64,000 nt of DNA. Source: a virus (taxonomy: Duplodnaviria > Heunggongvirae > Uroviricota > Caudoviricetes). The notes under the pieces are model-generated. The model had not been told where the DNA came from. It saw nothing but the letters and a program-made list of their open reading frames with translations, and made no database searches. Location of the stretch: the IMG/VR virus record IMGVR_UViG_3300049825_000338, positions 20,600 through 84,599 of that record. One strand, written 5' to 3'. The position numbers were made by a program, and so were the translations under genes. This document shows, piece by piece, positions 454 to 56,545 of the stretch; position 1 is the stretch's first letter, and every line of letters begins with the position of its first letter.

Positions 454-666
454 TTATTCTAGACGACTAAGAGCTTCGTCAGCCGTGATATTCCCCAACG
501 GACTTCCGACTGTATCAAGCTCTTGCTGCCACTCTTCGTCAGACATTGTTACACGTGCCATAAGAGCGTCAAACTCGTCATAGTCTTCGTTGTCGTCAGT
601 CAGTGGACTTGGTACCATCTCACTCACAATCCTACCGCCTTCATTGTCTCTAGAGCGCCAAACCAC
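454..666 (-). CDS. hypothetical acidic protein; last gene of the leftward operon
   Basis: ORF overlaps upstream lipoprotein gene by 43 nt; followed by 7-bp perfect stem hairpin (aaccctt/aagggtt ~425-445). Confidence 0.35.
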   Translation of the reverse strand: MVWRSRDNEGGRIVSEMVPSPLTDDNEDYDEFDALMARVTMSDEEWQQELDTVGSPLGNITADEALSRLE

Positions 667-2999
667 TTGCCTGTTCTATCAGCATCGCTTGAAAGTCCTC
701 CACCGTAGTGTACCCAGATTAACGCTTGAAACTCGTGAATCTTCATACGAGAAAACTGGTCCGGATGTTGTGTCTTAAGCGTGTTCAAAGCGTTACGCGT
801 AATCTTTGTTGTGTCACGGAACATTCCATCGCCAGGAGCAATGTGGTCCTTAACTGATCCAGCGCCTCGTTGAAAGATGTCTTGAGCGGTGGCGGCTTTC
901 TTTGTTCCTTTGGAATCTAGAGTCAGTTCTTTCATCGAGCCTCGTGACCCTTTATTGTGAAGTGGCGAATTTCCAGCCATAACTCGATAATGCCAGGTCT
1001 GCCCGCTGAAAAAAGTACGCCCTGCCCTACGAAAATAAGCCGTACCGTTATCAAGATTAGGACACCACACGAGTCCGTCATAAAGTTCTTCCGTGACGGT
1101 AAGAGCATCAACATGAATTGGCCGTGGCTTCAGAATTGACACATGGATATCTCCGCTAGGTGACACGTACCGTTTGGTGTTGAATCCAGCAATTCCGGCT
1201 ATGGCGTCAATATTGTCGGCCGCTAAGGAATCTTTACCTGTCCAGACGCGATTATTGTTTTTTCTTGTTCGACCGTCACCTAGAATCGCTGTGTCCAGAA
1301 ATCCATCGGCCTCATCAGCCGTCATAGAAGCAATAATTTCTTCCTTGAGTATACGTCCTTGAACCGTCTTATGTGCGTACGAACCTTCAGTAAACGAATC
1401 TCGAATTGCCAGAGCAGCAGGCCCCCCAACGGTCATTGTAGCCACACAACGATCATCACGATACCCGTACGGCCCTTCTTTAATCACAAATTCATCCGTC
1501 ACAGCACCAATATCAGCAAGCATTGTGACGTACTTGTCGGCGTTCACAGTGACAGACTGTGAACGTGTGATCTTGTTGGGGGAATTCTTAGGGATTGATC
1601 CATCAGAATGAATCCAGCCTAGCAATCGCGCCATTTTGACTCCGCCAACAATGCCAACATTACGGCCAATCGGGGCGGCTGTGTGGATTACGCCACTTGG
1701 TGGCAAAGAGTGTGATGGAGTGCGGTCACGTCGAGATATTGGTCCTGGCATGCGACTAGATGAAGTTATCCAGTTGTGATTTTTGGTGCAAACAACGTCA
1801 AACCTTGGTGACTTTTCGGAATAGCGCTTGCCTGAAATACGAACTACGTTGCCTGGCTCAGCTTGTCCAACATACACGTAGTTTATTGCCTGCCATTCTC
1901 CAACTTTCGTTTTCATGTTATAAGTCAAAGCCATATCACCTGGAATAACCTCAAAATATTTCAGCCAACCGCGCTGTGTAAGTAGTTCTGTTTCGGTGTC
2001 AAAGCAGTCGTTGGTGCTTGAGTAGTCCTTGTTCGGATTGGAGATATTAGAGAAAAATGACGAGTACTTCGGTCCCGATATTGATTGTCGTGATGTCACT
2101 TCGCCACGAAGAACGGCTACAGCCTGCTTTACTTGAAGCGTTCCCTTAGATGTGAACCACGGAAACGGAGGAGCAACTTTGTACTGCTCTGATGCTGACT
2201 TAGTGCCTGCTACAGTTCGGTCATGCCACTCGTTAAACGATCCGTGAGCGCGTAGGGCGTTAATGCTGTAGGCCGCTTCTACGAGAGTGGCTGAGTCAAG
2301 GTCTTTTGTAGAGACCGACCCCTCTTTAAGCTTCCCTCCGCACAGACCGACTTTACCAACTGCCTTGACTGACTTGCCGCAGCGCCACTGCATAAACTCT
2401 AGGTGCTTGGCTTCAATCTTTAGGTCAACCGGGTTCTTCACAATCTCGGCTAATGCTCGCGCTGTTTCGATGTTGCCGTTCTTGACACCAGACCACAAAC
2501 GTCCAGCAGAAAGTGTAGTCGCAGCTGCAACAACCTGATCCATTGGAATGCCGGTATCCGCCGAAATTGCCTTACAATCTTGGTTGGCTATTGAGTACCA
2601 CTTAGAATTGAGGGTGCCTTGAGTGGCCACTGCCAGGTCCACAGCACCAGACTTAGGATTGATTCCCATGGCAAGTTGTCCAGCCACAACAAGATTCGCC
2701 TCATATGCCGCCTTGGAAGGGCCGATGTCGTTCCAGAGGGTCGATAGCTTTGTTTCGGCTCCCTCACTAAATTTCGTAAAGTCACCCGATTCGGTAAGAC
2801 CTTCTACGCTCATTGTGCCGTCTTCGTAGAGTTTTTTCTGAGACGTATCGGACAGTCCCGTGAACAGGAGCTTTAAATCGTCACTACTTGTGAGCGCCAC
2901 ACCTGATCCGTCGCTGCTTCCTCCCGTACCTCCCGACGTAGGAGGTCTACAGGCCGCTGAATGGCAAGCAAAGACTAGTGACTGACGTGCGGACAACAT
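624..2999 (-). CDS. lipoprotein with intein-like Hint domain and LAGLIDADG endonuclease motifs
   Basis: N-term lipobox LVFAC; internal Cys-start splicing block CFDTE..., TxxH block (TKNH), two LAGLIDADG-like motifs (LLGWIHSDGS, FLDTAILGDG), C-terminal block ending FFSGQ|T. Confidence 0.65.
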   Translation of the reverse strand: MLSARQSLVFACHSAACRPPTSGGTGGSSDGSGVALTSSDDLKLLFTGLSDTSQKKLYEDGTMSVEGLTESGDFTKFSEGAETKLSTLWNDIGPSKAAYEANLVVAGQLAMGINPKSGAVDLAVATQGTLNSKWYSIANQDCKAISADTGIPMDQVVAAATTLSAGRLWSGVKNGNIETARALAEIVKNPVDLKIEAKHLEFMQWRCGKSVKAVGKVGLCGGKLKEGSVSTKDLDSATLVEAAYSINALRAHGSFNEWHDRTVAGTKSASEQYKVAPPFPWFTSKGTLQVKQAVAVLRGEVTSRQSISGPKYSSFFSNISNPNKDYSSTNDCFDTETELLTQRGWLKYFEVIPGDMALTYNMKTKVGEWQAINYVYVGQAEPGNVVRISGKRYSEKSPRFDVVCTKNHNWITSSSRMPGPISRRDRTPSHSLPPSGVIHTAAPIGRNVGIVGGVKMARLLGWIHSDGSIPKNSPNKITRSQSVTVNADKYVTMLADIGAVTDEFVIKEGPYGYRDDRCVATMTVGGPAALAIRDSFTEGSYAHKTVQGRILKEEIIASMTADEADGFLDTAILGDGRTRKNNNRVWTGKDSLAADNIDAIAGIAGFNTKRYVSPSGDIHVSILKPRPIHVDALTVTEELYDGLVWCPNLDNGTAYFRRAGRTFFSGQTWHYRVMAGNSPLHNKGSRGSMKELTLDSKGTKKAATAQDIFQRGAGSVKDHIAPGDGMFRDTTKITRNALNTLKTQHPDQFSRMKIHEFQALIWVHYGGGLSSDADRTGKWFGALETMKAVGL

Positions 3000-13455: not shown

Positions 13456-13757
13456 TTGTTTGCCAACTCTCTGATTGAAGGGTTTGCCCCAGATATTCCT
13501 AGGTGCTTATGAACGGCTTTTCTAAGCCTCCTGGTATAAAGTGTATGTCTGTCAAAGGGATGAGGATTATCCAGATAGGTCATGTATCCACAACGAACTT
13601 TTAAGTCACCAAGATCAAATTGCCAGAACCTGTTATCGTTGTCGCCATAAAGTCGTTTAAAGTTTGTTGCGCGACCGGCCTTAACTCCGCTAACTACAAC
13701 GGAATACCACCAAAGTCCTCGTGCTTTCGATTTCTCAATTCGGATACCTTCAGCCAC
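13452..13757 (-). CDS. hypothetical protein (ATGA-coupled to GIY-YIG gene)
   Basis: ORF; start/stop overlap. Confidence 0.4.
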   Translation of the reverse strand: MAEGIRIEKSKARGLWWYSVVVSGVKAGRATNFKRLYGDNDNRFWQFDLGDLKVRCGYMTYLDNPHPFDRHTLYTRRLRKAVHKHLGISGANPSIRELANK

Positions 13758-15213
13758 GGAGACGTTCTCTGATCTTGTCTAGCGTGTTGTCTTCGGCATA
13801 GTCCATCGAAATCAAACTGTCTACGAACGCTGGTCGAAGAAGATCGCGTGTAGACGACTCCTGCTCTTCTGGAGATAGGCCATCATTCAGAACGAGTTTG
13901 CCGTTCTCACGAGTCACCGTCAAGAATCCAGTTGCAGACTTCTTCAGGCCGTCATCAGTCACTGGGTCTTTGGCAAGAAAGTGAATCTTTCCGTTGATCT
14001 CGGCTGCTGTAGCCTTCATGGCCCACCCGAACGTATCGCGAGTTACGTACTGGTATGTGTAGCTGCCAATACCGAGCACAACTTCTGGAGCGTAGCCAGC
14101 GGACTGAAGTCGAGCAAGAATTTCTTGCGCTCGATCAAACGTAATGGCGTCTCCATAAATCACGCCAACCTTAGGATTGAGCACTCTGTAACCTTGAGTG
14201 TTCGTTGTGCTTCCAAATACTTTGTCAAGAAGACGGACAACGCCTTTCGATTCATCAGAATCAGCAGGTGCGTCAGGATCACCGCAAATGATCTTTACCG
14301 GGTCGCCACTGTCAGGACGGATCACGAGCTTGCCGTCACGAGCCTCAATTTCTTCCTTAAGGTCAGGAAGAATGTTGTTGATCACGTTCCACAAGTCCCA
14401 AGTGTCAGAAACAACCGAGACAATCCCAGAAGGGTACAGGTGCAAAAGTCGATTGAATGTCTCTCGCTCGTCCATTTTTGATCCAGCGCACATCACTGAG
14501 TGCTCGGTAGCAGCCACTGAGCCACCGATGAGTCCTTGACCGTCGTAGTAGTGCTCAAGCAGCTTGATTGCTGGGATGGTGTCCGTGCCCGTAAAGCTGA
14601 GAAGGTGGCCAGCGCCTGAGATAGCGGCGCTTTCTGGACTGGACATGCCGCGGAAACTGAAGTCATGACCTTGCCACTGCACGAACTCTGGTGCTACACC
14701 GGTAGCGGCTGCGCTACGGTCAAACAACTTTCGGTATCTGTCCGCAGTCGTAGCTGACGTCGATGGCAGCCACAGGACGCTGGACAGCAGCGTCTCGATA
14801 TAGTTGGTCAGCCAGAAGAACTCTGGGTCAGTATTTTCGACCGTAAGAACGGGAACCCTCATCGGCACTCTCGTGCCCTCGTCCAAAGCCATGATGGCAA
14901 TCGGAAGACGTTGCAACTTATGCAGTGCTTCGATGTGGTCGACGCCGATATTGTTGGGTCCGAGGTAGCTATCCAAGAACTCGCGATACTCCGCAACCGC
15001 TACGTCACAGGGGGTATCGAACCATTCATTGAACTCGTCAACAAGATACTTCTGCATGAAATAGCGAAGACCAAAGAACACAATCTCGTCAACACCCTCA
15101 ATGCGTGATCCTCGCGGCGTCAGGTTAGAGTAGACAAACGTCGTTCCTTCTGGATACTGACGACGGTGGTCTACCTTGTAGCCGTCAGTTAGCAAGATTG
15201 CTGGTGTGTTCAC
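13750..15213 (-). CDS. nadV: nicotinamide phosphoribosyltransferase (NAMPT)
   Basis: LLTDGYKVDH, VENTDPEFFWLTNYIETLL, GHDFSFRG, VVSDTWDLWN match NAMPT family blocks. Confidence 0.85.
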   Translation of the reverse strand: MNTPAILLTDGYKVDHRRQYPEGTTFVYSNLTPRGSRIEGVDEIVFFGLRYFMQKYLVDEFNEWFDTPCDVAVAEYREFLDSYLGPNNIGVDHIEALHKLQRLPIAIMALDEGTRVPMRVPVLTVENTDPEFFWLTNYIETLLSSVLWLPSTSATTADRYRKLFDRSAAATGVAPEFVQWQGHDFSFRGMSSPESAAISGAGHLLSFTGTDTIPAIKLLEHYYDGQGLIGGSVAATEHSVMCAGSKMDERETFNRLLHLYPSGIVSVVSDTWDLWNVINNILPDLKEEIEARDGKLVIRPDSGDPVKIICGDPDAPADSDESKGVVRLLDKVFGSTTNTQGYRVLNPKVGVIYGDAITFDRAQEILARLQSAGYAPEVVLGIGSYTYQYVTRDTFGWAMKATAAEINGKIHFLAKDPVTDDGLKKSATGFLTVTRENGKLVLNDGLSPEEQESSTRDLLRPAFVDSLISMDYAEDNTLDKIRERLRG

Positions 15214-16129
15214 GGTGGAACCTTTCGATTAGATTAGCAATTGAATACGTGCGAGTTACGTTCACGTTTGGATGAGCATACGAGTCTGTCGTAAGAATAT
15301 GTGTGTACCGTTTCAGTAGTTCTGATGTGCCTTTCGAAAAGATACCATGAGATACCCACAGCGACAATGGCACTCTACCGCCAACTATGTCAGCAAGACC
15401 ATGAAATGTTGCACCACCATCACAGATATCGTCAACAACAAGCCCGTTAGTGACGCCTTCCGGAATAGCGAGAGACTCGTACCCAGTGATACTGCCGGTG
15501 TCGAAGTTTCGTTTCTTTATTCCGTAGCTCACTTTCTTAATCCCTAGGAATTCTGCAAACGCTTCGGCGCGACCTACTGCCCCATGATCTGGAGTAATGA
15601 CCCAATCAAACTTTGGCATCCATACTTCAGCCTTTGCCAGAACTTCGTGAGCGCTGTAGACAACAACGTTTTTGTTCCAGTTATGAAGCCAATTCAGTGA
15701 ATGAGGATCAAACACGCCGACATAATCGCAAGCGTCCATGAAGTAATCCATGATGATGGAAGCCGTATCGGGCGTTCCATTTTGTTGACGATCCTGACGT
15801 CCTCCGTAGATATACGGAATGAATGCAGAGACGTAGGCACCAGCACCAACCAAAGCATCTACCAGCAGCATCGACCGAAACATACATGATGTCGAACTAT
15901 GGTCAACAACCAACGTCATTTCAAGTCCAGCAAACTTCGGTGGATCAGTCAACTGCACCTGCTGTGCTCCATCAGGAAAAACAAACTCGGCGTACCACGA
16001 CTGATCTGTCTGATACAGGATCATAGCACTGAACGATTTAGGTAAAGTAGACCAGCGCACAGCAACACTCCAAGGATCAGCACTACCGCTCCCATGGCCA
16101 ACGCCCGCTGCTAGCGAGTCCGACAACAC
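15185..16129 (-). CDS. prs: ribose-phosphate pyrophosphokinase (PRPP synthetase); likely start at MILYQT (~16024)
   Basis: IPYIYGGRQDRQ (Prs hallmark) and VVDDICDGGATF PRPP-binding loop. Confidence 0.8.
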   Translation of the reverse strand: MLSDSLAAGVGHGSGSADPWSVAVRWSTLPKSFSAMILYQTDQSWYAEFVFPDGAQQVQLTDPPKFAGLEMTLVVDHSSTSCMFRSMLLVDALVGAGAYVSAFIPYIYGGRQDRQQNGTPDTASIIMDYFMDACDYVGVFDPHSLNWLHNWNKNVVVYSAHEVLAKAEVWMPKFDWVITPDHGAVGRAEAFAEFLGIKKVSYGIKKRNFDTGSITGYESLAIPEGVTNGLVVDDICDGGATFHGLADIVGGRVPLSLWVSHGIFSKGTSELLKRYTHILTTDSYAHPNVNVTRTYSIANLIERFHREHTSNLAN

Positions 16130-17612
16130 TAGGAATCAGATCAAGAATCTGATCCGAAAATCCGCCGACAACAAAGCGGTTATGTGAGCCATGCTGGGCA
16201 TGGGCAACTGCGTATCCGGCGACATTCCATGTGACTACAGGAACGTTAACGATGCTGGTATCTCTAACCGACGTCTGCTCATCTGTCAAGATGATAACCA
16301 GATCGTACCTGCCTCGTCGGAATGCTTCTGACGTGCAGTGCCACGTGTCAGTGCCGCCGTTAGGACGGAACCATCCAGAATTCACGACACCTAGAACAGA
16401 CTGTGTGTCGAGATGAGCGTTCTTCTGTTCACGAAGAAGGCGAGTATCGTAGCTCACGATATCGGCTGACTTAGCTCGTCTAGCAAGTGTAACTGCAAAT
16501 AGTCCTGCAACCTGCGATCTCGTAGGAGACGTTCCCCGGCTGTCGTTTCCGACGCGTGTGCCCATAGAGCCAGAGCAGTCAACCATAATAAGAACGTTCT
16601 TGTTGATTAACGGAAGGTTCTTCACCGACTCTTCTAACGCATCGTTCAACGGCTGCTTGAAGCGATCGCTCTTTGTGTTCATGTACGCAGACAAGAAGCG
16701 ATACGGAAGCTGCTTGGACTTAGCTACTTCTTCAGCGTTTGCGATTCGGGCTGCCGCCTTAGCAAGTTCTTTAACGGGAACGTGAGCGTCTTCTAGGTTG
16801 CGCAGGTTGCGCAGAAGCGCCATGTAGCCTAGCTCTGGAACTAGTGCAGACCATGCAGACGCATCCAGGCCTCCAGGCAGCCATGAACCAAGACGTTCCC
16901 ATGAGAAGCCAGCCGACACGGCCTCGTCTAGCCGTGCACGTCGCTCAGCTGCTGGAATGCTCTGAAGATTCAGAACTTGAGAAATTCGTCCTAGCTCTTC
17001 GGGAGTACTTACGGCATTACGTCGTCGATCAAGCGCAAACTTGAACAGCGCAGACTGCTTCTCTGTTGACGGTATAGGGTGCACAATCTCGATGACGTCA
17101 CCGAACCGCCAGCCCTTATTAGAGCCGTCGTAGCGAAGCAACGCGTTCTCTGTGTACAGGCGTTTCACAGCATCACCAATGCCGCGCTTTAGCGCCATTG
17201 GCATCTGGCGACCGTACTGGCTGAACCAGTAACCGAGCATTTCTCCCGGCTCGTCAGCGCGCTGAAGAACGGAGTTAACAACCGAACGAGCGTTCGGTCC
17301 CTTCATCCGAGCGTACTCTGCTGCAATGACAAGCGAGGCCGAACGAATGTTTGCCTCATTGCGGAGCCACTTCACGAACGGAGCAATCCATGACGGATCA
17401 CACCTACTCACCAATGTCGCAAGACGATCAAGCTGGTCAGCGCCGCTTTCGTAGAACTGATCCTTGAGGAGTCCGGATACGGCCGTCAGAAACAACTCTG
17501 TTTGAGCAGTGTTCTCGAATCCTAGTCCGCCTTCAAACGTCTGTACTCGGTTGGTTGTTGATGCCAGTAGTGCTGGCCGCGCCTTGGCTGGTGTGTTACT
17601 GAATCGTGCCAT
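16083..17612 (-). CDS. rsr: Ro60-like TROVE domain protein with C-terminal vWA domain
   Basis: alpha-helical TROVE-like N-terminal ~340 aa (QFYESG...IAAEYARM), then vWA MIDAS motif VLIMVDCSGSMG and downstream T/D motifs. Confidence 0.6.
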   Translation of the reverse strand: MARFSNTPAKARPALLASTTNRVQTFEGGLGFENTAQTELFLTAVSGLLKDQFYESGADQLDRLATLVSRCDPSWIAPFVKWLRNEANIRSASLVIAAEYARMKGPNARSVVNSVLQRADEPGEMLGYWFSQYGRQMPMALKRGIGDAVKRLYTENALLRYDGSNKGWRFGDVIEIVHPIPSTEKQSALFKFALDRRRNAVSTPEELGRISQVLNLQSIPAAERRARLDEAVSAGFSWERLGSWLPGGLDASAWSALVPELGYMALLRNLRNLEDAHVPVKELAKAAARIANAEEVAKSKQLPYRFLSAYMNTKSDRFKQPLNDALEESVKNLPLINKNVLIMVDCSGSMGTRVGNDSRGTSPTRSQVAGLFAVTLARRAKSADIVSYDTRLLREQKNAHLDTQSVLGVVNSGWFRPNGGTDTWHCTSEAFRRGRYDLVIILTDEQTSVRDTSIVNVPVVTWNVAGYAVAHAQHGSHNRFVVGGFSDQILDLIPSVVGLASSGRWPWER

Positions 17613-20472: not shown

Positions 20473-20609
20473 CCCGTCCGGCGAGCGAGCGCCTGCGCTT
20501 CGATGATTGCCTCATCCTTGGAGTCGATCGTGCGGGCATTGAATGTGCGATAAAAGCCGTCACCGCCGTTGTCATCGGTGTAGGTGACAATCTTGATTGT
20601 GTAACTCAT
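20379..20609 (-). CDS. hypothetical small protein, first gene of the GHKL/rsr/NAD-salvage operon
   Basis: consensus leaderless promoter 20616-20644. Confidence 0.5.
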   Translation of the reverse strand: MSYTIKIVTYTDDNGGDGFYRTFNARTIDSKDEAIIEAQALARRTGWCYGVFGPEGKVHDTSPYYAQFNLTEEVTS

Positions 20610-41930: not shown

Positions 41931-42422
41931 TCAGAGTACGGGTTGAACAGACTCCAGAAAACCGACGTAAACGATCGATCGGCCACGAGTCCACGAGCAC
42001 TGCAACACGATGCGCCGAGCCGCTGGATCAAGGCCATAGATAAGTTCAGCGGGCGGGTCTTGAGACGTCACGGTTCTGGTGGCAATACGATACGTGAACA
42101 CCTGGTCATAGGAATTGATGTTCACCGTTTGCCCAGCACGGAGACGTGGGAGCTTACGGAACGGAGCACCGTGACTCGAACGATGACCGGCCAGCCAGAC
42201 AGTACCGACCTCGCCAGGAGCCACAGCCGGTGACCAGCCGTCAAACAAGGTGACGCTACCAGCATCAATTGATTCCTGGTCACCTACGTAGATGTCAGCG
42301 CCGAATCGAAGCGACGGAATCTCCAAGTACCAGTCGGTGGTATTTGAAGAAGCGGAAGCCGGAATGCTTGTAGCTATCGGTAACAGGATTACAGCCAGAA
42401 AGACACACAAAGCTTTCATCAC
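41931..42422 (-). CDS. sortase-family transpeptidase
   Basis: signal peptide; VWLAGHRSS (His), RIVLQCSW (Cys), TRGRSIVYVG (Arg) in SrtA-like order. Confidence 0.6.
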   Translation of the reverse strand: MMKALCVFLAVILLPIATSIPASASSNTTDWYLEIPSLRFGADIYVGDQESIDAGSVTLFDGWSPAVAPGEVGTVWLAGHRSSHGAPFRKLPRLRAGQTVNINSYDQVFTYRIATRTVTSQDPPAELIYGLDPAARRIVLQCSWTRGRSIVYVGFLESVQPVL

Positions 42423-45450: not shown

Positions 45451-46620
45451 TTAAACACTTCTGTCTCCTCCGGTTCCTCCGGTGCTGATTAGCTCGCCTG
45501 TATGGAGAGCAAAGATTGCGATCTGATCTTCGGTTTTGGCGAATAAAACAGCGTCGGCGCGTTTGTTCGTCGGGAATACAGCCGTCACATTCACTTCTAG
45601 TTTACCGTCATCTGGGTTGTGCCAGCCACCTACCCCGACTGTGGCACCTTCAATCTTTATCGCCATTGCTGCGTCGATTCGCTCTCTAACCGCTTTCACC
45701 ATCGCTGGTTTCGGCCGGGGACCGTCGAACGAGTCGGCAGCAAGAAAGAGTCGATCTGACCCGCCAAGCGCCACGGCAAATCCTTCCGTGATCGGCTCTA
45801 GGCTAGGGACAGCGAGCGTGAAACCTGAATCCGGCTGTGCCAGTGGGTCAGTTGCCCGACTTTCTGGAGACCGCGCAAACCGACCCGCTGAATCGTGGTT
45901 CTTGTTGTAGAACGCTTCACTTTCAACTTCGTCATCACTAATTGAACCAACAACAGCCTTCTTTCGTGGGCGACTCGATGCAGCAAATAGAGGAACGTTC
46001 AGTAGTTCATCATACGTAACTTCACCGCCAGCTATCGGATTTCCTTTGGCTAAAGCGTCTCTAGTTGCGTCAGTCCAATGTCCAACACTACTTCCTGACT
46101 GAAAGTACGCTCCAAGCTTTGAATAAAACGGCTTAGCTGTGCCGATAGCGCTATAAACAGCAAGATCAAAGTCAAGTGCAGCAGCAGTCTTAGCTACTTC
46201 CGTAAGAGCCTGCGTACCATGACCTTGCCTCTTATCCAACATTCTCATGTCTGTGATAGCGACTTGTTTGCTGGTTCTGCTTATCTGAAATTGCACCCCG
46301 CCACGAACTTGTCCTTCGGCGTTACGCACAACAACGACAGAATTACCCATCCAACTTTGAAAGATGTGGCGAAGAGGGTTCAGTTCCTCTATTCCTTGAG
46401 CATCTAGTTCCTTGAGAATCGCCTTTCTCTCACGCTGAATATCGCCACGAATAACCGAAATAGTGCCGCCACTGGAAGCAAACCGGCCTTTCTCGTCGTG
46501 ATTCTTGTTGTAAAATTCTTGTCCGTCTAAGCCAACAAGTTCAGTGAAAGATTCGTGCAAAATCTGAACATCATTTCTAGACCACCACGAAAGAGGCTGT
46601 TCGATTCCTAGAACGCTCAT
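45451..46620 (-). CDS. multidomain polyvalent-type protein: GNAT acetyltransferase domain plus unknown domain, two FYNKNHDxxGRF linker motifs
   Basis: QEFYNKNHDEKGRFAS and EAFYNKNHDSAGRFAR; GNAT-like RQGHGTQAL. Confidence 0.55.
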   Translation of the reverse strand: MSVLGIEQPLSWWSRNDVQILHESFTELVGLDGQEFYNKNHDEKGRFASSGGTISVIRGDIQRERKAILKELDAQGIEELNPLRHIFQSWMGNSVVVVRNAEGQVRGGVQFQISRTSKQVAITDMRMLDKRQGHGTQALTEVAKTAAALDFDLAVYSAIGTAKPFYSKLGAYFQSGSSVGHWTDATRDALAKGNPIAGGEVTYDELLNVPLFAASSRPRKKAVVGSISDDEVESEAFYNKNHDSAGRFARSPESRATDPLAQPDSGFTLAVPSLEPITEGFAVALGGSDRLFLAADSFDGPRPKPAMVKAVRERIDAAMAIKIEGATVGVGGWHNPDDGKLEVNVTAVFPTNKRADAVLFAKTEDQIAIFALHTGELISTGGTGGDRSV

Positions 46621-46802
46621 TGATAAATGCCCTTAGCAGCAAACTCGTCAAGACGTCGGTCTACCGCAAAGTCTCCGAGAATCAGACGTGCGTCCTCAAG
46701 CGAGGCAACAGTTATCGACTCGCCACTAGTCCACAAACGACGCGCTTCCTCTGCCGATAGCGCTGAGGATTCGTCAATCGTCATTGTAGGTAGTAAGTTC
46801 AC
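46617..46802 (-). CDS. hypothetical small protein
   Basis: ATGA-coupled ORF. Confidence 0.35.
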   Translation of the reverse strand: MNLLPTMTIDESSALSAEEARRLWTSGESITVASLEDARLILGDFAVDRRLDEFAAKGIYQ

Positions 46803-48658
46803 TCTGATTCCTTTACGAGCACTGCCTTCAACATCTTACCAGTGATCTTCGCTGCAACAGCACGGTGGTGTCCAGAGAGAATTACTCTGCGTCCATCTGC
46901 CTTCTCATAAACGACCGGGTATGTGTTACCTGCCTGATGAGCGTCAGCAAACGTCTTACCAGTACGTTCGTATTGACCTGTTGTGTAGTGCTGCACTCCC
47001 GACTTAGTGACCCACGGCTGCGTGGCGTGTAGGTTGTCGGTCGGAATGTCAACTAGCCGAGGAGTCTTGACGGCTGCTTCGACCTTCGCACGATCGAACA
47101 GAGGTTCTGTTTTCTTACGTCCAATCGACGGAAATGGTACGGGTACCTTGTCGTGGTGAGCAAATAGCTTCTCAACTCCGGGGTGATCCTTAGCAGGAGA
47201 CTTAATTACTCGGTGAATGGCCTGAGTCATTGTCTCGGCGTTATCTGCGGGCTTCGTGAACCTTGTCTTGACTACTCGGCTAGCCTCTGGAAAGTAGTTA
47301 CGCCCAGACGTGAACTTGCCTTCGGCATCGTGATTTTTGTTGTAGAAGTCATCTGCATCAAGAATCACAAATGAATCAATTGTTTCTTGAATGAGTGATG
47401 CAGTCACCTGAATACCAGCAAAGACAAGAGAATCGGGCATCAGTGCAATTTTCTGAACAGGAAAACGTCCAGTCTCATGAACTACAGCGTTCTGCGCTTC
47501 TGTCTCAGTTGCCAGCGCTCTGATAGCGCCACGACTCTTGAACATCTCGGAGTGAGAAACGTAAGCCGCACGTTCTCCATGACGATCAAACCCTCGGCCG
47601 GTGGCAGCGTGACCGAACACATCATGAACGGCGCGAAACATGTCATTTTCCTGATCGGTAAAGAACGTGTGACTTCCCGTCACTGCCGTCTTCATCACCT
47701 TGATCGTGCCCGCTTCAACGTCGGCAGTCATCATCTTGGCTGTTCGGTATGGGTCGTATGAAACAAACTCGACCTTGATTCCCTTAGACGTCATAAAATC
47801 AAACTGCTGTTTCACTTCACCAGCAAGTGCTCGATACGATGGGTGCGCCGATGGATCATCAACAGGCATAGCTTCATACGCCTTAGCCATCTTTGAGCGT
47901 AGCTCGGCGGGAGCCATTATTTCATCCCAAGCACCTTCAGATCGTTCGGTGCTCTGCGTGTACGCATCCCGAATTTGACGCGCTCGTGCTGATCCAGTCA
48001 CATCTTCGATTACTTCTGGATTGGCTACGTTTACGTCAGAGGCAGTGAACCGACCCTTTGCGTCATGATTCTTATTGAAGAATTCATCAGAACCTTGATC
48101 GAGCGACCAACGCCCATTTGACGTGTGGTAGATGTGGTACTGAGCAAATAGATTGTCATCAGCCACCACAAACTCATTTGTCTGAACTACAGATAGGGTC
48201 ACTTTCTCGGCACCCTGACGACTCGTTAGCGTATTCACGATACCTTGAAACATAGGCTTCTTCATGTAGTCACCTTCACGTCGATACGATTTGTCGCTGA
48301 TCTGGATTAACCGATCAAACCTCAGATACGACTCACGACCTGTCTTATCCCACTTGCCTTCACCGATGCTCACTCGGCCAGGTCCAGACTTCGACGTTAG
48401 TTGAAGTGCAACTAGATTCTTGCCGTCAGCGGTACGGCCGATAATCAGCACAGGACGATCCTTGCTTTGCGAAGCGTCTTCTTGAAACGGAACGCGTGCC
48501 CACACCACTTCGCCTGGATCAGCGTGACCGTCTGGATATCGTGGGCGGTAGGCAATCTTGATATTAGAGAACGACACATCAGGAAGAGCTGTCGATCCTG
48601 ATGTAGTAGTGAACCGACCTACGTTGTCGTGAGCCTTGTTGTAGAATTCGTCATCCAT
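46799..48658 (-). CDS. multidomain polyvalent-type protein: MazF/PemK-like, unknown and ParB-like nuclease domains separated by three FYNKNHDxxG[RK]F motifs
   Basis: DEFYNKAHDNVGRF, DEFFNKNHDAKGRF, DDFYNKNHDAEGKF. PGEVVWARVPF...RPVLIIG (PemK-like). YPVVYEKADGRRVILSGHHRAVAAKITG (ParB GxxR/HHR box). Confidence 0.6.
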   Translation of the reverse strand: MDDEFYNKAHDNVGRFTTTSGSTALPDVSFSNIKIAYRPRYPDGHADPGEVVWARVPFQEDASQSKDRPVLIIGRTADGKNLVALQLTSKSGPGRVSIGEGKWDKTGRESYLRFDRLIQISDKSYRREGDYMKKPMFQGIVNTLTSRQGAEKVTLSVVQTNEFVVADDNLFAQYHIYHTSNGRWSLDQGSDEFFNKNHDAKGRFTASDVNVANPEVIEDVTGSARARQIRDAYTQSTERSEGAWDEIMAPAELRSKMAKAYEAMPVDDPSAHPSYRALAGEVKQQFDFMTSKGIKVEFVSYDPYRTAKMMTADVEAGTIKVMKTAVTGSHTFFTDQENDMFRAVHDVFGHAATGRGFDRHGERAAYVSHSEMFKSRGAIRALATETEAQNAVVHETGRFPVQKIALMPDSLVFAGIQVTASLIQETIDSFVILDADDFYNKNHDAEGKFTSGRNYFPEASRVVKTRFTKPADNAETMTQAIHRVIKSPAKDHPGVEKLFAHHDKVPVPFPSIGRKKTEPLFDRAKVEAAVKTPRLVDIPTDNLHATQPWVTKSGVQHYTTGQYERTGKTFADAHQAGNTYPVVYEKADGRRVILSGHHRAVAAKITGKMLKAVLVKESE

Positions 48659-49100: not shown

Positions 49101-49345
49101 GGTGAAGTACCATCACCATGAATGAAAAATCCTGTAGACACCAAAAATTCTGGGTCCGGATAATACATAGTCATGTGGTACCCACGAGGGTTTAGAAGCT
49201 CAGCGTTCACCAACCAGTGAAGTCCGAGGTTGTTAAATTCAGCCCACGGCATGTAGCTTTCGACATTGCCTTCAAACATCGGGTGAATGACTTCCGGTAC
49301 ATAAAGATCAGAGATGATACACCGCCTCGTAGTCGGGTGTCTCAT
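49028..49345 (-). CDS. hypothetical protein (probable internal start)
   Basis: fills the 49101-49307 gap; overlaps both neighbours if full length. Confidence 0.3.
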   Translation of the reverse strand: MRHPTTRRCIISDLYVPEVIHPMFEGNVESYMPWAEFNNLGLHWLVNAELLNPRGYHMTMYYPDPEFLVSTGFFIHGDGTSPWEGVDPNHPIARRAFKRVKKFLK

Positions 49346-50111
49346 CGAATTGACCGGTCATAAGGTCTTTGCCAAACCACGAGTGTGACCGTCCTGCGTC
49401 TCGTTTGCCGATTGATGCAAAGTGAATCGGCTGCACGTCTGCACCGTCACGGACTGCCTGAAGAACTGCGTCTAGGTCGTTCTTTGTTCCTTGCGAAAGG
49501 TACTGACGATTCTCGCTACCATACTTTTCAAACACCTCAGCCACGTTAGTTCTATCAATGTTGTCCCTAAACCTAAACCCGGCCTTGGCCCAGGCGTACG
49601 GTCCAACAGCACCAGCACCTGTCGAAGAAGCATAGACTTCGATGTCGTTCACACCGGCTTCGTGATAGAACTTCAGTGCTTTAGCATTTATGGCGGTACC
49701 TATGCCTTTTCCTTGCATAGTTAAGTAGTTAATTGACAAATAATCGTGTGAAGCAATAAGCTTTCTTGTCTGTGAATCAACCATAATTCGTCGCTTAAAT
49801 TCACCTATTGGTGCCCCATCCTTATCACTGATTACTCCACTAACCGCAAAGCTGTGCCCAATACTTTCTCTAAACACTACTGCTTTAGCACTCCATTCGT
49901 TATTTGTCTGGGTAAAGGCTTCAGCAATTTGAATTTCAGTTAATTTATCAAACTGTCTGAATACGTTTCGTCCAGATGAAGAGGAGGAAGAAATAGGAGA
50001 AATAGGTACATCACTACCAGGAAGTGAGCCTCCGCTGCCCGTAGGGGGAGGAGCGCAGGTTGACGAATGACAGGCGAAACTAAGAGACTGAACTACGTGC
50101 AACATCAGCAA
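49308..50111 (-). CDS. lipoprotein with GNAT acetyltransferase domain
   Basis: lipobox SFAC with leader paralogous to gene 624-2999; MQGKGIGTAINAKALKFYHEAG GNAT motif. Confidence 0.55.
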   Translation of the reverse strand: MLMLHVVQSLSFACHSSTCAPPPTGSGGSLPGSDVPISPISSSSSSGRNVFRQFDKLTEIQIAEAFTQTNNEWSAKAVVFRESIGHSFAVSGVISDKDGAPIGEFKRRIMVDSQTRKLIASHDYLSINYLTMQGKGIGTAINAKALKFYHEAGVNDIEVYASSTGAGAVGPYAWAKAGFRFRDNIDRTNVAEVFEKYGSENRQYLSQGTKNDLDAVLQAVRDGADVQPIHFASIGKRDAGRSHSWFGKDLMTGQFDETPDYEAVYHL

Positions 50112-50610
50112 TCCGCGCTTCGACCGCAGCGAGTAGAGCTGCCATTTCAGAGGGACTTTCAGACGGAAGAATTATCTCCAGTTCAAGAGGAAACGAGACT
50201 GTCAACGGTTCAGCAAGAGGAACCGAGTAACGACCGAAGTCACCATCCGCCCATACTTCCATGCGGTCAAATTCAATGGAAGTCGGCATCGTACCAGTGT
50301 ACTCGTCTTCACCGTAACTCAGGGACAGGTGCGGCAGCCACTCAGGATGCTCCGATTCACAAAGATCGGCTACAGCCTGACGGTAAATGTCAGCCTGTTT
50401 CGGGTCAAGATAGACGACTTCAGCGGCCCATTTGCCCTCTCCAAGCTGCCCGGTTCCGACCACTGAGAGTGATCTTTTAGGAAGGGTTGGCGCAAGCGCT
50501 CCGACTCGTTGACACCACGAAGCGTAACTACTTTCTGTGGTATTTTCACTGTACGCTAAGGTCATGTGCCCTTCACCGATAGCGTTGGTCGGTACTAGTG
50601 CGATGATCAC
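50080..50610 (-). CDS. 2H phosphoesterase (LigT-like cyclic phosphodiesterase/2'-5' RNA ligase family)
   Basis: two H-x-[TS]-x motifs, HMTL and HLSL, ~88 aa apart in a 176-aa protein. Confidence 0.55.
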   Translation of the reverse strand: MIIALVPTNAIGEGHMTLAYSENTTESSYASWCQRVGALAPTLPKRSLSVVGTGQLGEGKWAAEVVYLDPKQADIYRQAVADLCESEHPEWLPHLSLSYGEDEYTGTMPTSIEFDRMEVWADGDFGRYSVPLAEPLTVSFPLELEIILPSESPSEMAALLAAVEARIADVARSSVS

Positions 50611-50889: not shown

Positions 50890-51246
50890 TCATTCTTCCA
50901 AGTCTACCCACTGGCTTCGATCGTTCAACACCTGAGTTCTGATGTTTTTCGGATTCATGGCTTTCTCAACCAGCGACTCAACAGACGGCCGACCCGCAGC
51001 CAGTGCTACAGCCGTACGAAACCACGCTTTCCATTCAGGAGTCTCGCGTAGACGCTGGAACGCAGCAGTCTTGTTTCGGTGTTGCTCACGGCTGTCTGTC
51101 GCTTCGCCAACAGCACCAGAAGCTCGGTGAACAAGCCGAACACCGGTATGCGATTTGTTGCGATGCTGTCCACCGGCACCCGAACCACGAATATGCGTCT
51201 CGTCAAAGTCTTTCGCTGTGATCGTCAGAATCAGTTCTCGGCTCAT
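50890..51246 (-). CDS. GGQ-motif peptidyl-tRNA hydrolase domain protein (ArfB/release-factor-like)
   Basis: RGSGAGGQHRNKSHTGVRLVH matches the ArfB GGQ block; DSREQHRNKTAAFQRL follows. Confidence 0.75.
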   Translation of the reverse strand: MSRELILTITAKDFDETHIRGSGAGGQHRNKSHTGVRLVHRASGAVGEATDSREQHRNKTAAFQRLRETPEWKAWFRTAVALAAGRPSVESLVEKAMNPKNIRTQVLNDRSQWVDLEE

Positions 51247-54966: not shown

Positions 54967-55206
54967 ATGTTCACATTCGCCATACAATCAGTTAGTGGCC
55001 ACATTTCTTACTTTGACTCATCTCGGGTAGTTTCTTTTGTAGAAATAAAGGACGAACCCGACAAGGTGATAGTAGTTATGGATAACGGAACATCGGAACC
55101 GGTGTTTGTGGGCATTGAAGCTTCTCCAGCAGTCTTTTACAGAACTCTTCAAATGAGGTCTAGATTTCTCAACGATGTGCCTATTCTCAAGGAAGTGACA
55201 CTATGA
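54967..55206 (+). CDS. hypothetical protein
   Basis: ORF only. Confidence 0.4.
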   Translation: MFTFAIQSVSGHISYFDSSRVVSFVEIKDEPDKVIVVMDNGTSEPVFVGIEASPAVFYRTLQMRSRFLNDVPILKEVTL

Positions 55207-55916
55207 CACTTTTTCCAGTGTTAGACCTTTCTTCGGATAACTTCGTTCAAGAACCACTTCTGGACAATGCCATCAAGCAGGCCAGACTGCACCGCACTTT
55301 GGCCGAGTCTCGGTCGGCGTCGGCGGCATCCGATCAGATCAGAATTCTCGCTGACGAAGCGCTGCGAACTGAAAGACACATTGTTGCCGGTGATTCACAC
55401 AACAATACTCTCTGGATGTACGGCGACGTCAACATGGACAAGACGCGTATGATCATTGCCGATCTGAACGCACGACACCGTATTGATCCTACAGCCGATC
55501 TCACGCTTTATGTGTGCTCTGAAGGAGGCGACATTATTGCTGGCCTGGCACTGTACGACCAGCTGAAGGCGCTTCAGGCAGCGGGTCACCACCTGACCAC
55601 GATTGCTACCGGAATGTGCGCCAGCATGGGCGTACCGATCTGGTGTGCTGGTGATGTTCGGCTGATGGGCGACAACTGCACGTTTCTACTTCATCAACCA
55701 AGTCTCGGTTCCGAGGGAACCTTAGGTGAATTGTATGATACAGTGGAATTAGCTGAACAGCTTTACAGTCAAATTCTAGACATCCTTGCCAGCACTTCGG
55801 AGAAGTCGGCTCGATCTCTTAGAGCCTTGATTAAGCGTAAAGACCTCTGGCTCAGTGCTAAAGACATGGCCGAATATGGATTCGGTCAGCTATTATCGGA
55901 AGGATTACCCCTATGA
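55203..55916 (+). CDS. clpP: ClpP-family (S14) serine protease
   Basis: SEGGDIIAG, GMCASMG (Ser), LLHQPS (His) in ClpP order. Confidence 0.8.
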   Translation: MTLFPVLDLSSDNFVQEPLLDNAIKQARLHRTLAESRSASAASDQIRILADEALRTERHIVAGDSHNNTLWMYGDVNMDKTRMIIADLNARHRIDPTADLTLYVCSEGGDIIAGLALYDQLKALQAAGHHLTTIATGMCASMGVPIWCAGDVRLMGDNCTFLLHQPSLGSEGTLGELYDTVELAEQLYSQILDILASTSEKSARSLRALIKRKDLWLSAKDMAEYGFGQLLSEGLPL

Positions 55917-56545
55917 CAAAGACACACCACGTATTTATCATTGACACAAGCGGCTCGATGATCACCCACATTTCGGCAGCTCAAGAGTTTCTCGACTCTA
56001 GAATGATTGAGTTGCCAGAGGGAGATTCGATCACTATCGGCACGTTTTCGGACGACTACACATCACGGATTGAGTACACTCGCAAAGCTAACGTCAATGA
56101 GTTGGCCACGGCTCCGCTTCGTGCGGGCGGTATGACGGCTCTTCGTGACGCTGTAGGCATCGGCATTGACCGAGTTGGCCGAGTGCTTAGGCAGCTTGAC
56201 GATCGTCACCGGCCAGCTAAAGTTCTTTTTACAGTCTTCACTGACGGAGGAGAAAACTGTTCGCGTCGGTACAGCAGCCACCAATTGCGAGAAATGATTC
56301 ATCACCAAAAGGATAAGTACAGTTGGGACTTCATGTTTATCGGCCCTCGCGGCGACGCCGCCCCACTTGACTGGCTTGACCAGGAGGATGCGGCGTTCTA
56401 TGTTCCGTCGTGGTCAGCTACGACGGTACTTCGGTCGCTAAACACGACATATTCTAATGTGTACACAGGCGCTGATTTTTCGGCTAGTCGAAGCACGTTG
56501 TCAAACACTTTAGCGCAGGATCAGCCACAAGAGGTTGCGTTGTGA
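55913..56545 (+). CDS. von Willebrand factor A domain protein
   Basis: FIIDTSGSM MIDAS, GGMTALRDAVG, FTDGGEN. Confidence 0.65.
   Translation: MTKTHHVFIIDTSGSMITHISAAQEFLDSRMIELPEGDSITIGTFSDDYTSRIEYTRKANVNELATAPLRAGGMTALRDAVGIGIDRVGRVLRQLDDRHRPAKVLFTVFTDGGENCSRRYSSHQLREMIHHQKDKYSWDFMFIGPRGDAAPLDWLDQEDAAFYVPSWSATTVLRSLNTTYSNVYTGADFSASRSTLSNTLAQDQPQEVAL

Follow-up and report, generated by a model that had tools for sequence, protein, structure and literature searches.

An apparently uncatalogued cysteine-containing peptide at the module boundaries of effector-type proteins in a lineage of uncultured phages

Closest described systems

Short conserved peptides ahead of exchangeable modules are found in polymorphic toxins, as the pre-toxin motifs VENN of CdiA and DPxGL of Rhs proteins, and in MARTX toxins as inter-effector linkers. 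CdiA, Rhs and MARTX toxins are secreted by bacteria and have domains dedicated to secretion or autoprocessing. In phage T4 unrelated internal proteins begin with one 10-residue peptide, the capsid-targeting sequence (CTS), which the prohead protease cuts off; it is thought to let phages load varied cargo (PMC9026906). The polyvalent proteins of phages are predicted to be delivered by the virion (PMC5512222; Iyer, Burroughs, Anand, de Souza, Aravind 2017).

A peptide module of about 25-30 residues, here named motif A, is the shared leader of two proteins in the stretch of DNA analyzed (the window, 64,000 nt, positions 20,600 to 84,599 of IMG/VR record IMGVR_UViG_3300049825_000338, Caudoviricetes). 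Like the CTS of T4 IPI-III (PMC9026906), motif A is a short portable N-terminal peptide placed on unrelated proteins ahead of a functional domain. The two have no sequence similarity. A gp21 site (L/I-x-E) closes the 10-residue CTS; motif A has ~25 residues, an invariant Cys pair, a Pro-Pro and internal copies, up to seven. Comparison by eye showed no gp21-type L/I-x-E site in the motif A logo and a motif 2-3 times longer than the CTS. Packaging and cleavage are proven for the CTS and inferred for motif A.

Proteins carrying motif A resemble the polyvalent proteins (PMC5512222) in joining many unrelated effector domains in one phage polypeptide. The shared repertoire includes ADP-ribosyltransferases (among them Pfam ART-PolyVal), zincin peptidases, nucleases and nucleotidyltransferases. 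At least two unrelated effector domains, as in polyvalent proteins, were present in P0003 (seven modules), in P0028 (GNAT-like, MazF, GNAT-like and ParB-like modules) and in a 619-aa protein of the window; the GNAT-like and DUF7178 proteins of the window are single-module. The motif A set differs in having a conserved leader on every module and in encoding the same modules also as separate tagged genes. The words "cysteine" and "linker" are absent from the text of PMC5512222, and no description of a junction peptide was found there. Unlike the CdiA, Rhs and MARTX junctions, motif A is phage-encoded and often N-terminal on single-domain proteins, and it has no sequence in common with them.

The shared leader and its two proteins

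The leader-bearing genes and the gene upstream of one of them have the following features.
50080..50610, minus strand: 2H-phosphoesterase-like gene, directly upstream of the tagged GNAT gene (Pfam 2_5_RNA_ligase2)
50025..50105, minus strand: motif A leader of the GNAT-like protein, residues 1-27, MLHVVQSLSFACHSSTCAPPPTGSGGS (sequence, profile search, logo, pLDDT)
49308..50024, minus strand: Pro/Ser-rich linker and predicted GNAT-fold body (family alignment, PDB profile, AF2, Foldseek; QGKGIG acetyl-CoA-type motif)
2916..2999, minus strand: motif A leader of the DUF7178/intein-bearing protein, residues 1-28, MLSARQSLVFACHSAACRPPTSGGTGGS (sequence, profile search)
624..2915, minus strand: DUF7178-family body, interrupted by an intein-like insertion
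999..2006, minus strand: intein-like insertion, 336 aa, C332 to Q667, followed by T668 (intein-less homologue P0063; LAGLIDADG-like motifs by eye)

Both ORFs were confirmed on the minus strand at these coordinates. The proteins have in common M-L-x3-QSLxFACHSxxCxPPxxGxGGS over their first ~27 residues. The first-pass annotation had taken the first ~25 residues of both as paralogous, and this was borne out. Pairwise scoring of the N-termini of all window ORFs of at least 100 aa (6,105 pairs, mean 16.3, sd 3.9) gave the leader pair 92 and the runner-up 35. The leader was the sole segment matched by BLASTP between the full-length proteins (E = 4e-6), and a six-frame regex search of the window for C.S..C.PP returned the two leaders only. 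The GNAT-like gene had been placed correctly except for its start at 50111, a TTG chosen mechanically; in the public gene call it starts with the ATG at 50105 and encodes 265 aa. With this ATG the two leaders fall in one register with 17 invariant columns. The DNA likeness pointed out earlier is present (39/63 nt identical) but is no more than the peptide demands, as third codon positions match at 9/21.

The search of the rest of the genome that the first-pass annotation had called for yielded three further strict motif A copies and one degenerate copy, 1.6-3.1 kb past the left edge of the window. The genome thus has five strict copies and one degenerate copy, on unrelated proteins. Its tagged genes sit among nucleotide-metabolism and replication genes, outside any late operon.

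The evidence supports a GNAT fold, and a predicted acetyltransferase, for the body of 49308-50105. The AF2 model has a mean pLDDT of 81, and its top 33 Foldseek matches in the PDB at E < 1e-3 are all GNATs, with TM scores of 0.4-0.5 (relative to target). PDB profile matches were weak and almost all GNATs, aligned over the acetyl-CoA-motif region. The Q/R-x-x-G-x-G/A motif is present as MQGKGIGTA, with QGxGIG kept at that position in a 23-sequence family alignment. The GNAT label given earlier is therefore upheld by the family alignment, the profile matches and the fold, but not by Pfam, which gave no family for the window protein at E ≤ 0.01; Pfam GNAT models match eight other motif A proteins. 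Homologous GNAT-like modules number 43, in 33 motif A polyproteins. A word-index protein search with the whole protein returned a single distant homologue. The 2H-phosphoesterase-like gene runs, with its stop, 26 nt into the 5' end of the GNAT-like gene.

The other tagged protein had been labelled a Hint protein. An intein-like element is indicated by comparison with P0063, a homologue that lacks it and has the uninterrupted sequence DYSSTND|TWHYR; at precisely this junction the window protein carries 336 additional residues in frame. The nucleophile would be C332, the terminal residue Q667 and the +1 residue T668, with Gln where His-Asn is usual. The label lacks a Pfam match, as the protein at 624-2999 gave no Pfam Hint or intein match at E ≤ 0.01 and no PDB sequence match at E ≤ 1. 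Part of the predicted fold of the DUF7178 body resembles HhH-GPD glycosylases and queuosine-salvage enzymes. Of the 52 matches listed for a search with this protein, 46 carry motif A, and four of these 46 have little besides the motif in common with it. A segment of 25-50 aa precedes the tag in most DUF7178 homologues, so the tag there is not strictly terminal. The public gene call of 624-2999 begins 33 codons too far downstream; the correction of this gene start, which restores the codons lost by the gene caller, holds whatever the mechanism of the tag.

Distribution and conservation of motifs A and B

Searched with a profile of the two leaders, a set of 1.84 billion representatives gave 269 protein clusters at E ≤ 1e-3. 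C-x4-C-x-P-P was present in all 149 of the matches listed, which hold 280 copies of motif A, the window's own excluded. The consensus is [ILV][EV][FLA]-A-C-[HYR]-[SD]-x-x-C-[AR]-P-P-x-x-G-x-G-G-S followed by a Gly/Ser linker. Its parts are a short hydrophobic segment, the core A-C-[H/Y/R]-x3-C-[A/R]-P-P-x-x-G-x-G-G-S and a Gly/Ser/Pro linker. Among the 280 copies C0, C+5, P+7 and P+8 are invariant, and G+11 and G+14 have one exception each. The Ala-Cys is nearly invariant. Position +1 is His in 59% of copies and Tyr or Arg in 30%. Many variants have extra His or Cys just upstream (HFHEGETFAC, CTEHGEFAC, CEHGSLTAAC). Conservation spans about 20 residues and reaches 16 residues beyond the first Cys. 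Motif A was disordered in two independent AF2 models, covering residues 1-29 of the GNAT-like protein (pLDDT <50) and 1-44 of the DUF7178 protein.

Of 150 proteins, 102 have the first Cys at residues 5-19, and in single-module proteins motif A is about 10-12 residues from the N-terminus. Polyproteins (up to 2,249 aa) also have it internally, with at most seven copies each, spaced 70-580 aa apart and mostly 250-290 aa, which is domain-sized. Internal copies account for 161 of 282 (57%) and N-terminal copies for 121. The N-terminus is formed by motif A or by a second peptide, motif B, in at least 133 of the 149 listed proteins. The modules behind motif A include DUF3626, MazF, GNAT, DRAT/PARP/ART-PolyVal, Zeta, nucleotidyltransferase, topoisomerase IB, RelA/SpoT and DUF7178. 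Motif A thus marks module boundaries ahead of effector-type enzyme modules, in split genes or polyproteins. The earlier suggestion of a reusable module on different enzymatic heads proved right and far more general, extending to hundreds of proteins of many unrelated families.

Motif A is an apparently uncatalogued Cys-containing peptide. No Pfam or NCBIfam model covers it, tblastn against deposited phages and plasmids gave no match, and no description of motif A strings or of such a junction peptide was found in the literature. A word-index protein search with a 42-aa motif A alignment gave 162 candidates and three matches, and a loose degenerate pattern over genome contigs gave at least 120 loci; no true motif A was among these listed loci. 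The phages that use motif A belong to an uncultured lineage whose genomes measure about 90-115 kb and whose hosts are probably Actinobacteria.

Two other resemblances were rejected. PPTSG/PPPTG recalls the LPxTG of sortase substrates, and a sortase-like gene lies at 41931-42422, but position 4 varies across the family (T/V/S/A), and a signal peptide is present on the sortase-like protein but on none of the tagged ones. QSLVF/QSLSF recalls a beta-clamp-binding motif, but the Gln is specific to the two copies in this genome and is not conserved in the family.

Motif B reads EFYNPxQPRDxxGRW, NKNHDxxGRF or NPxHDxxGRF, and in the window [ED]EF[YF]NKxHDxxG[RK]F. It marks two further proteins of an effector island.
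46799..48658, minus strand: 619-aa polyvalent protein with MazF-like, middle and ParB-like modules (Pfam PemK; motif B scan)
48611-48646, 48047-48082 and 47312-47347, minus strand: motif B copies, one before each module of the 619-aa protein (motif B scan)
45451..46620, minus strand: 389-aa protein of the same island, with two motif B copies at 46480-46515 and 45877-45912

No Pfam family was found for the 389-aa protein. The modules of the 619-aa protein are homologous to modules of the motif A polyproteins P0047, P0028 and P0038. Fission or fusion occurs exactly at the tag. In P0023 a 2H module (residues 5-125) homologous to the window gene is fused to a motif A junction (140-169), as against the separate 2H and tag-GNAT genes of the window, and the modules of the 619-aa protein compare in the same way with P0047 and P0028. 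Whatever the mechanism of the tag, the 45.4-50.6 kb region of the window is an unfused or split form of a polyvalent effector protein.

Motif B resembles motif A in being N-terminal or inter-module, in being followed by a Gly/Ser linker and in occurring in the same polyproteins. It is unrelated in sequence, has no Cys pair and is found in head-maturation protease/scaffold and portal proteins of deposited phages. Both motifs precede the same GNAT-like module, 13 polyproteins contain a mixture of the two, and a B-like peptide stands in the DUF7178 homologue P0181 at the place where its relatives carry motif A; motif A is therefore positionally interchangeable with motif B. Matches of motif B in head proteins were short tblastn matches, individually weak (E 0.003-8). 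They comprised two copies in the prohead protease/scaffold fusion of MW202897, one at the C-terminus of a portal (FR725450) and 15 in Mycobacterium phages, all 15 inside genes for "capsid/head maturation protease". Damien gp10, encoded directly upstream of the major capsid gene, begins MSFNPRQPRDRFGRW. Motif B is far more widely distributed than motif A, occurring in Mycobacterium phages, an uncultured myovirus and an archaeal provirus. No description of it was found in the literature.

Possible roles of motif A

We tentatively propose that motif A is a tag bound by another protein, which would send effector modules to procapsid loading, to cleavage by the maturation protease, or to both. Serving as an address label or propeptide, the unstructured peptide would bring each module to a part of the head-assembly machinery, be it the maturation protease, the scaffold or the portal. 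There the modules would enter the procapsid, be cut free or both, and the next infection would deliver them together with the DNA. Binding might depend on a metal or on redox state through the invariant Cys pair, which usually comes with a His. The link to capsid assembly is drawn because motif A is interchangeable with motif B and motif B is present in head-maturation proteins. The motifs may differ in mechanism, as motif B has no Cys pair and a simple protease site needs none. No head protein with motif A was found. TerL relatives in IMG/VR had neither motif, and a metagenome scan with the TerL-adjoining protein gave only relatives of 28-36% identity, also with neither. The position of the tagged genes outside a late operon counts against a capsid tag, as does the segment ahead of the tag in most DUF7178 homologues. 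It is possible, though somewhat doubtful, that motif A is a new portable Cys/His cargo tag that loads dozens of toxin-like enzymes into virions, with recognition perhaps dependent on metal or redox state. With the same uncertainty, that reading would have these enzymes injected into the next host, either singly or in polyproteins cleaved at the tag.

Motif A could be only a processing linker with no virion role, cut by a protease of the phage or its host or cleaving itself at Ala|Cys by an N-to-S acyl shift; polyprotein modules would then be released inside the infected cell. Its presence at every polyprotein module junction with domain-sized spacing agrees with such a linker, as do the near-invariance of Ala-Cys, the zincin/HExxH modules and a SprT-like metalloprotease gene in the same proteins or genomes, and the metallopeptidase processing proposed for polyvalent proteins (PMC5512222). 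This is unlikely, however, as single-module proteins keep the whole motif ~10 residues from the N-terminus, with nothing there to release, and ~20 conserved residues with two invariant Cys, two Pro and three Gly go far beyond typical protease sites. Nor does a structured domain that could strain a scissile bond surround the Cys in the models. Motif A could also form a metal or redox clasp, in which C-H-x3-C binds Zn, Cu or Fe or forms a disulfide. A clasp would link tagged modules among themselves or with a partner, or would hold toxic modules inactive until conditions change. Two invariant Cys in a flexible C-x4-C segment, the frequent His at +1 (59%) and the further upstream His or Cys of many variants would suit it. 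Motif B takes the same positions without a Cys pair, 30% of copies have Tyr or Arg for the His, and no metal-binding family matches motif A, so that a clasp is a rather poor candidate. PP, PPP and PPG are EF-P-dependent stalling sequences, and the layout of the junction peptides recalls viral 2A peptides, so C-x-P-P-(P) might stall or re-program the ribosome at module boundaries. This is very improbable; it leaves the conserved A-C-H-S-x-x-C upstream and G-x-G-G-S downstream unexplained, and an N-terminal copy would stall every single-module protein with no obvious gain.

Conserved DNA that promotes recombination would account for modules that are clearly shuffled, fused and split at the motif A boundary. 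Where the amino acid is identical, however, the codon is the same in only 32% of cases and third positions agree in 33%. The scrambling holds even inside one genome or one polyprotein, where copies switch between TCN and AGY for Ser and between CGN and AGR for Arg. Synonymous sites are saturated and there is no identical stretch for homologous recombination, which makes a DNA-level cassette boundary extremely improbable; because the codons are scrambled, selection acts on the peptide and not on the DNA. The first-pass annotation had favored an export or lipidation signal, with a lipid-anchored GNAT outside the cytoplasm. Motif A does resemble a lipobox (PS51257) in its small residues before an invariant Cys near the N-terminus: x-F/A-A-C recalls the lipobox end, and among the 121 N-terminal copies 13 fit the PS51257 pattern taken by itself. 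The full rule, which also asks for K/R in the first seven residues, no charge in the six positions before the box and the Cys at residues 15-35, is failed by both window proteins, whose Cys is at residue 12, and is passed by three of 121 N-terminal copies. The motif has no n-region and no h-region (at least seven hydrophobic residues between a basic n-region and the lipobox). The longest hydrophobic run before the Cys is 2 in the GNAT-like protein, 4 in the DUF7178 protein and at most 5 in 120 of 121 N-terminal copies. Glu occupies -3 in 117 of 282 copies. Most copies are internal (161/282), while a true signal stands only at the N-terminus of a precursor, and conservation continues 16 residues past the Cys, unlike a lipobox. 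The cargo (MazF, Zeta, GNAT, ADP-ribosyltransferase, RelA/SpoT and an HhH-GPD-like fold) is of cytoplasmic types acting on cytoplasmic targets. A lipoprotein leader, and with it the anchored GNAT, is thus practically untenable. The likeness of the leaders, for which generic lipobox features had been named as the deflating explanation, is specific but unrelated to a lipoprotein signal. An N-terminal x-A-C near the start codon is insufficient for a lipoprotein call.

If motif A is an address or processing label, A-C-x4-C-x-P-P-x-x-G would identify the effector set of an uncultured phage group. It would point to more than 250 protein clusters, mostly unannotated, as candidate enzymes of host takeover or anti-defence, and would give a testable handle on how polyvalent proteins are sorted and cut. 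The 25-30-residue tag could then be used to load foreign proteins into actinophage particles. If the cargo-tag reading is true, motif A would be a sequence-unrelated counterpart of the T4 CTS, and the tag alone would identify the delivered effector set.

The leader shared by the two window proteins

Two proteins of the window open with the same cysteine-containing leader of about 25-30 residues, here called motif A. Both ORFs are on the minus strand, at the positions reported in the first-pass annotation. The GNAT-like ORF starts at TTG 50111 as a mechanical ORF and at ATG 50105 in the public gene call (P0001, 265 aa). With ATG 50105 as the start the N-termini of both proteins are in register.

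Proteins with motif A in the window
624-2999, minus strand, DUF7178-family protein, leader MLSARQSLVFACHSAACRPPTSGGTGGS
49308-50105, minus strand, GNAT-like protein, leader MLHVVQSLSFACHSSTCAPPPTGSGGS

The aligned leaders have 17 invariant columns. The pair scored 92, compared to 35 for the runner-up and a mean of 16.3 (sd 3.9) over 6105 pairs of N-termini from window ORFs. The leader segment was the sole alignment in full-protein BLASTP of the two proteins (E = 4e-6), and C.S..C.PP occurred only in the two leaders in a six-frame scan of the window. The match is far above chance, confirming the earlier observation that the first residues are common to both proteins. In AF2 models of both proteins the leader was the only low-confidence part (residues 1-29 of the GNAT-like and 1-44 of the DUF7178 protein, pLDDT below 50) and is predicted not to be packed on its domain.

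The DNA had also been described as similar. This holds (39/63 nt identical), but nothing goes beyond what the peptide demands (third positions 9/21). Codons were analyzed in 24 motif A copies at eight loci, drawn from six contigs or genomes. Positions identical in amino acid had the same codon in 32% of cases, with third-position identity of 33%, and the five copies from this genome gave the same values. Ser TCN/AGY and Arg CGN/AGR switches were present among the seven copies of one polyprotein (L013). Because codons differ at identical residues, selection is on the peptide. No identical DNA remains at motif A to drive recombination, and a DNA cassette is highly improbable.

The annotation had read the leader as an export or lipidation signal, and this did not hold. 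A Cys is present at residue 12, with a hydrophobic run of at most 2-4 residues ahead of it. PROSITE PS51257 was failed by both window proteins and passed by 3/121 N-terminal family copies. Internal copies made up 161/282, Glu was at -3 in 117/282, and conservation peaked after the Cys. A lipoprotein signal has a negligible probability.

The GNAT-like protein had no Pfam match. Homologues of its body occur as 43 modules in 33 motif-bearing proteins, and the family alignment has a QGxGIG motif. The profile of this alignment matched almost only GNATs in the PDB, weakly (best E = 1.2e-3). The AF2 model (mean pLDDT 81) gave 33/33 GNATs among Foldseek matches at E < 1e-3, including the TacT toxin. 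These results support the original GNAT label.

2H-phosphoesterase-like gene
50080-50610, minus strand, directly precedes the tagged GNAT gene with a 26-nt overlap (50080-50105)

In the protein P0023 the 2H module runs on into a motif A junction, and the 2H and GNAT modules form one polypeptide. The tagged GNAT frame is open for 21 codons upstream of its ATG (minus strand). The arrangement in the window suggests that the two genes split recently, or are joined by a frameshift, precisely at the tag boundary.

The 624-2999 protein had been called a Hint protein. It does contain an intein-like insertion, delimited by comparison with the intein-less homologue P0063, but no curated Pfam Hint/intein model and no PDB sequence matched it.

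Insertion in the DUF7178 protein
999-2006, minus strand, 336 residues (C332..Q667, then T668)

LAGLIDADG-like motifs are present in the insertion, whose last two residues are Gly-Gln instead of His-Asn; it is perhaps a divergent intein.

Distribution and cargo of motif A

The window comes from a phage-like metagenome contig of ~106 kb. A search for further copies in this genome found three more genes opening with motif A and one degenerate copy just beyond the left edge of the window, between a class II ribonucleotide reductase (RNR) gene and whiB and terL. The degenerate leader (…ESFRAGCNQAGCIPPNGGS…; 9664-10020 of the contig, ~2.5 kb left of the window) lies amid the three small genes with an intact tag (106-145 aa), which suggests that the tag has decayed in one paralogue.

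Back-translated patterns located true in-frame copies on nine IMG/VR contigs, with up to seven per contig. An HMM from the two window leaders matched 269 clusters at E <= 1e-3, of which 43 reached E <= 1e-10, among 1.84 billion cluster representatives. The top matches were polyproteins of 600-2249 aa with up to seven copies each. All 149 matches listed, the window's own excluded, had C-x4-C-x-P-P (280 copies altogether). The logo was [ILV][EV][FLA]-A-C-[HYR]-[SD]-[AK]-[AS]-C-[AR]-P-P-[PT]-[VSA]-G-x-[GT]-G-[SG]-S, followed by a G/S/P-rich stretch.

Motif A subtypes
Subtype 1: ...EFACHSAACRPPTSGGTGGS
Subtype 2: ...LVAAC[HYR][DS]KxCAPPPVGxGGS

Among matches listed, the first Cys was at residues 5-19 in 102/150 proteins. 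Copies within one polypeptide were 70-580 residues apart, mostly 250-290, which equals one domain. The joined domains were DUF3626, MazF/PemK, GNAT, DRAT/PARP/ART-PolyVal, Zeta toxin, poly(A)/CCA nucleotidyltransferase, topoisomerase IB, RelA/SpoT and DUF7178. This cargo is a repertoire of phage polyvalent and toxin-like effectors, and the idea of a reusable module on different enzymatic heads is borne out. Motif A was present in 46 of the 52 DUF7178 matches listed, and four of this set share little except the motif. The gene order at locus L176 was dNMP kinase, tagged DUF7178, small gene, TerL and RNR; its DUF7178-TerL-RNR part recurs at two other loci (L150, L009). This genome departs from that order: TerL is inverted, and RNR and the tagged genes separate it from DUF7178.

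Pfam and NCBIfam have no model for motif A. In tblastn the motif had no match among deposited phages (50,697 records) or plasmids (72,556); motif B (below) queries of equal shortness did give matches. Ten motif A clusters examined (16 members) came from metagenomes only, and the motif seems confined to uncultured phages. Their hosts are probably Actinobacteria, based on WhiB, DUF and mycobacteriophage-type domains and a GC content of 51-67%.

Motif B and the effector island

A second, sequence-unrelated junction peptide (motif B) is of the EFYNPxQPRDxxGRW / NKNHDxxGRF type. One GNAT-like module was preceded by motif A in some polyproteins and by motif B (EEFYSPSQPRDKEGQWT) in others. Motif B was present at other junctions of 13/149 motif A proteins among listed matches, and P0063 begins with B, then A. 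In P0181, a DUF7178 homologue, a B-like peptide occupies the site where 46 other matches listed have A. At least 133 of the 149 listed proteins begin with A or B, and several of the remainder have B variants outside the regex. The two motifs are interchangeable in position.

Window positions 45.4-50.6 kb are an effector island, which takes in the 2H and tagged GNAT genes. Five motif B copies (consensus [ED]EF[YF]NKxHDxxG[RK]F) were present in two neighbouring genes.

Motif B genes of the effector island
46799-48658, minus strand, 619-aa protein of three modules (MazF-like, middle module, ParB-like)
48611-48646, 48047-48082 and 47312-47347, minus strand, motif B at its module junctions
46480-46515 and 45877-45912, minus strand, motif B in the adjacent 45451-46620 gene

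All three modules of the 619-aa protein are homologous to modules of motif A polyproteins.

Short motif B queries in tblastn matched an uncultured myovirus, in which a protein fusing prohead protease and scaffold has two copies after its protease domain, and the C-terminal tail of the portal of Nitrososphaera provirus Pro-Nvie1. An actinophage-type variant as query matched 15 records, 15/15 of them Mycobacterium phages and 15/15 under 'capsid/head maturation protease'. Damien gp10 opens MSFNPRQPRDRFGRW, and its gene is directly upstream of the major capsid protein gene. Each of these matches was weak (E 0.003-8), yet all were in the same kind of gene. The forms in these deposited-phage genes were NPxHDxxGRF and NPxQPRDxxGRW. 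No Pfam family was reported for motif B carrier proteins in these scans and no description of the motif was found.

Other window genes were recorded. A minus-strand set (16083-17612, 13750-15213, 9644-10906, 50890-51246) comprises Ro60/TROVE and vWA, NAMPT-like phosphoribosyltransferase, RNA ligase and a small RF-1 (peptidyl-tRNA hydrolase) domain protein. With the 2H gene it suggests tRNA/RNA repair and NAD salvage against host defence. A ClpP-family protease gene (55203-55916, plus strand) overlaps a vWA-domain gene (55913-56545, plus strand) by 4 nt; the pair lies among replication genes (DUF927 primase, DNA polymerase A) rather than in a head module. The public gene call assigns Pfam Sortase to a sortase-like protein of 162-163 aa (41931-42422, minus strand), which starts with a signal or anchor segment and has LAGHR and VLQCS motifs. 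Phage-encoded sortases are unusual, and nothing connected this one with the tag.

Possible roles of the tag

Motif A is very probably a modular tag of effectors rather than a signal peptide. It is a disordered peptide under protein-level selection that precedes interchangeable effector modules and takes up the same position as a peptide found in head-assembly proteins. N-terminal tags shared by cargo proteins are a known kind, as are polyvalent effectors. Motif A itself, and its presence at each module boundary, appear undescribed in the databases and literature searched. String searches found no description, and the 2017 paper that defined polyvalent proteins has neither 'cysteine' nor 'linker' and no junction peptide description was found in it (PMC5512222).

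Use as a processing linker only would suit a peptide repeated about once per domain and is possible, though on the unlikely side. The invariant Cys pair could form a metal or redox clasp, which is rather unlikely for a peptide exchanged in position with motif B. A nascent-chain element is very improbable.

A propeptide or address tag is the likeliest of these readings, though a tentative one. Motif A would be recognised by another protein, and would bring modules to the procapsid via the maturation protease, scaffold or portal and/or mark the place where they are cut. Against this, no head protein bearing motif A was among the proteins found, the tagged genes are located among nucleotide-metabolism genes, and a plain protease site leaves the invariant Cys pair unexplained. 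The proposed role resembles that of the capsid-targeting sequence of phage T4, 10 residues long, which unrelated internal proteins share at the N-terminus and gp21 removes (PMC9026906). As an address tag, motif A would also agree with the virion delivery predicted for polyvalent proteins (PMC5512222).
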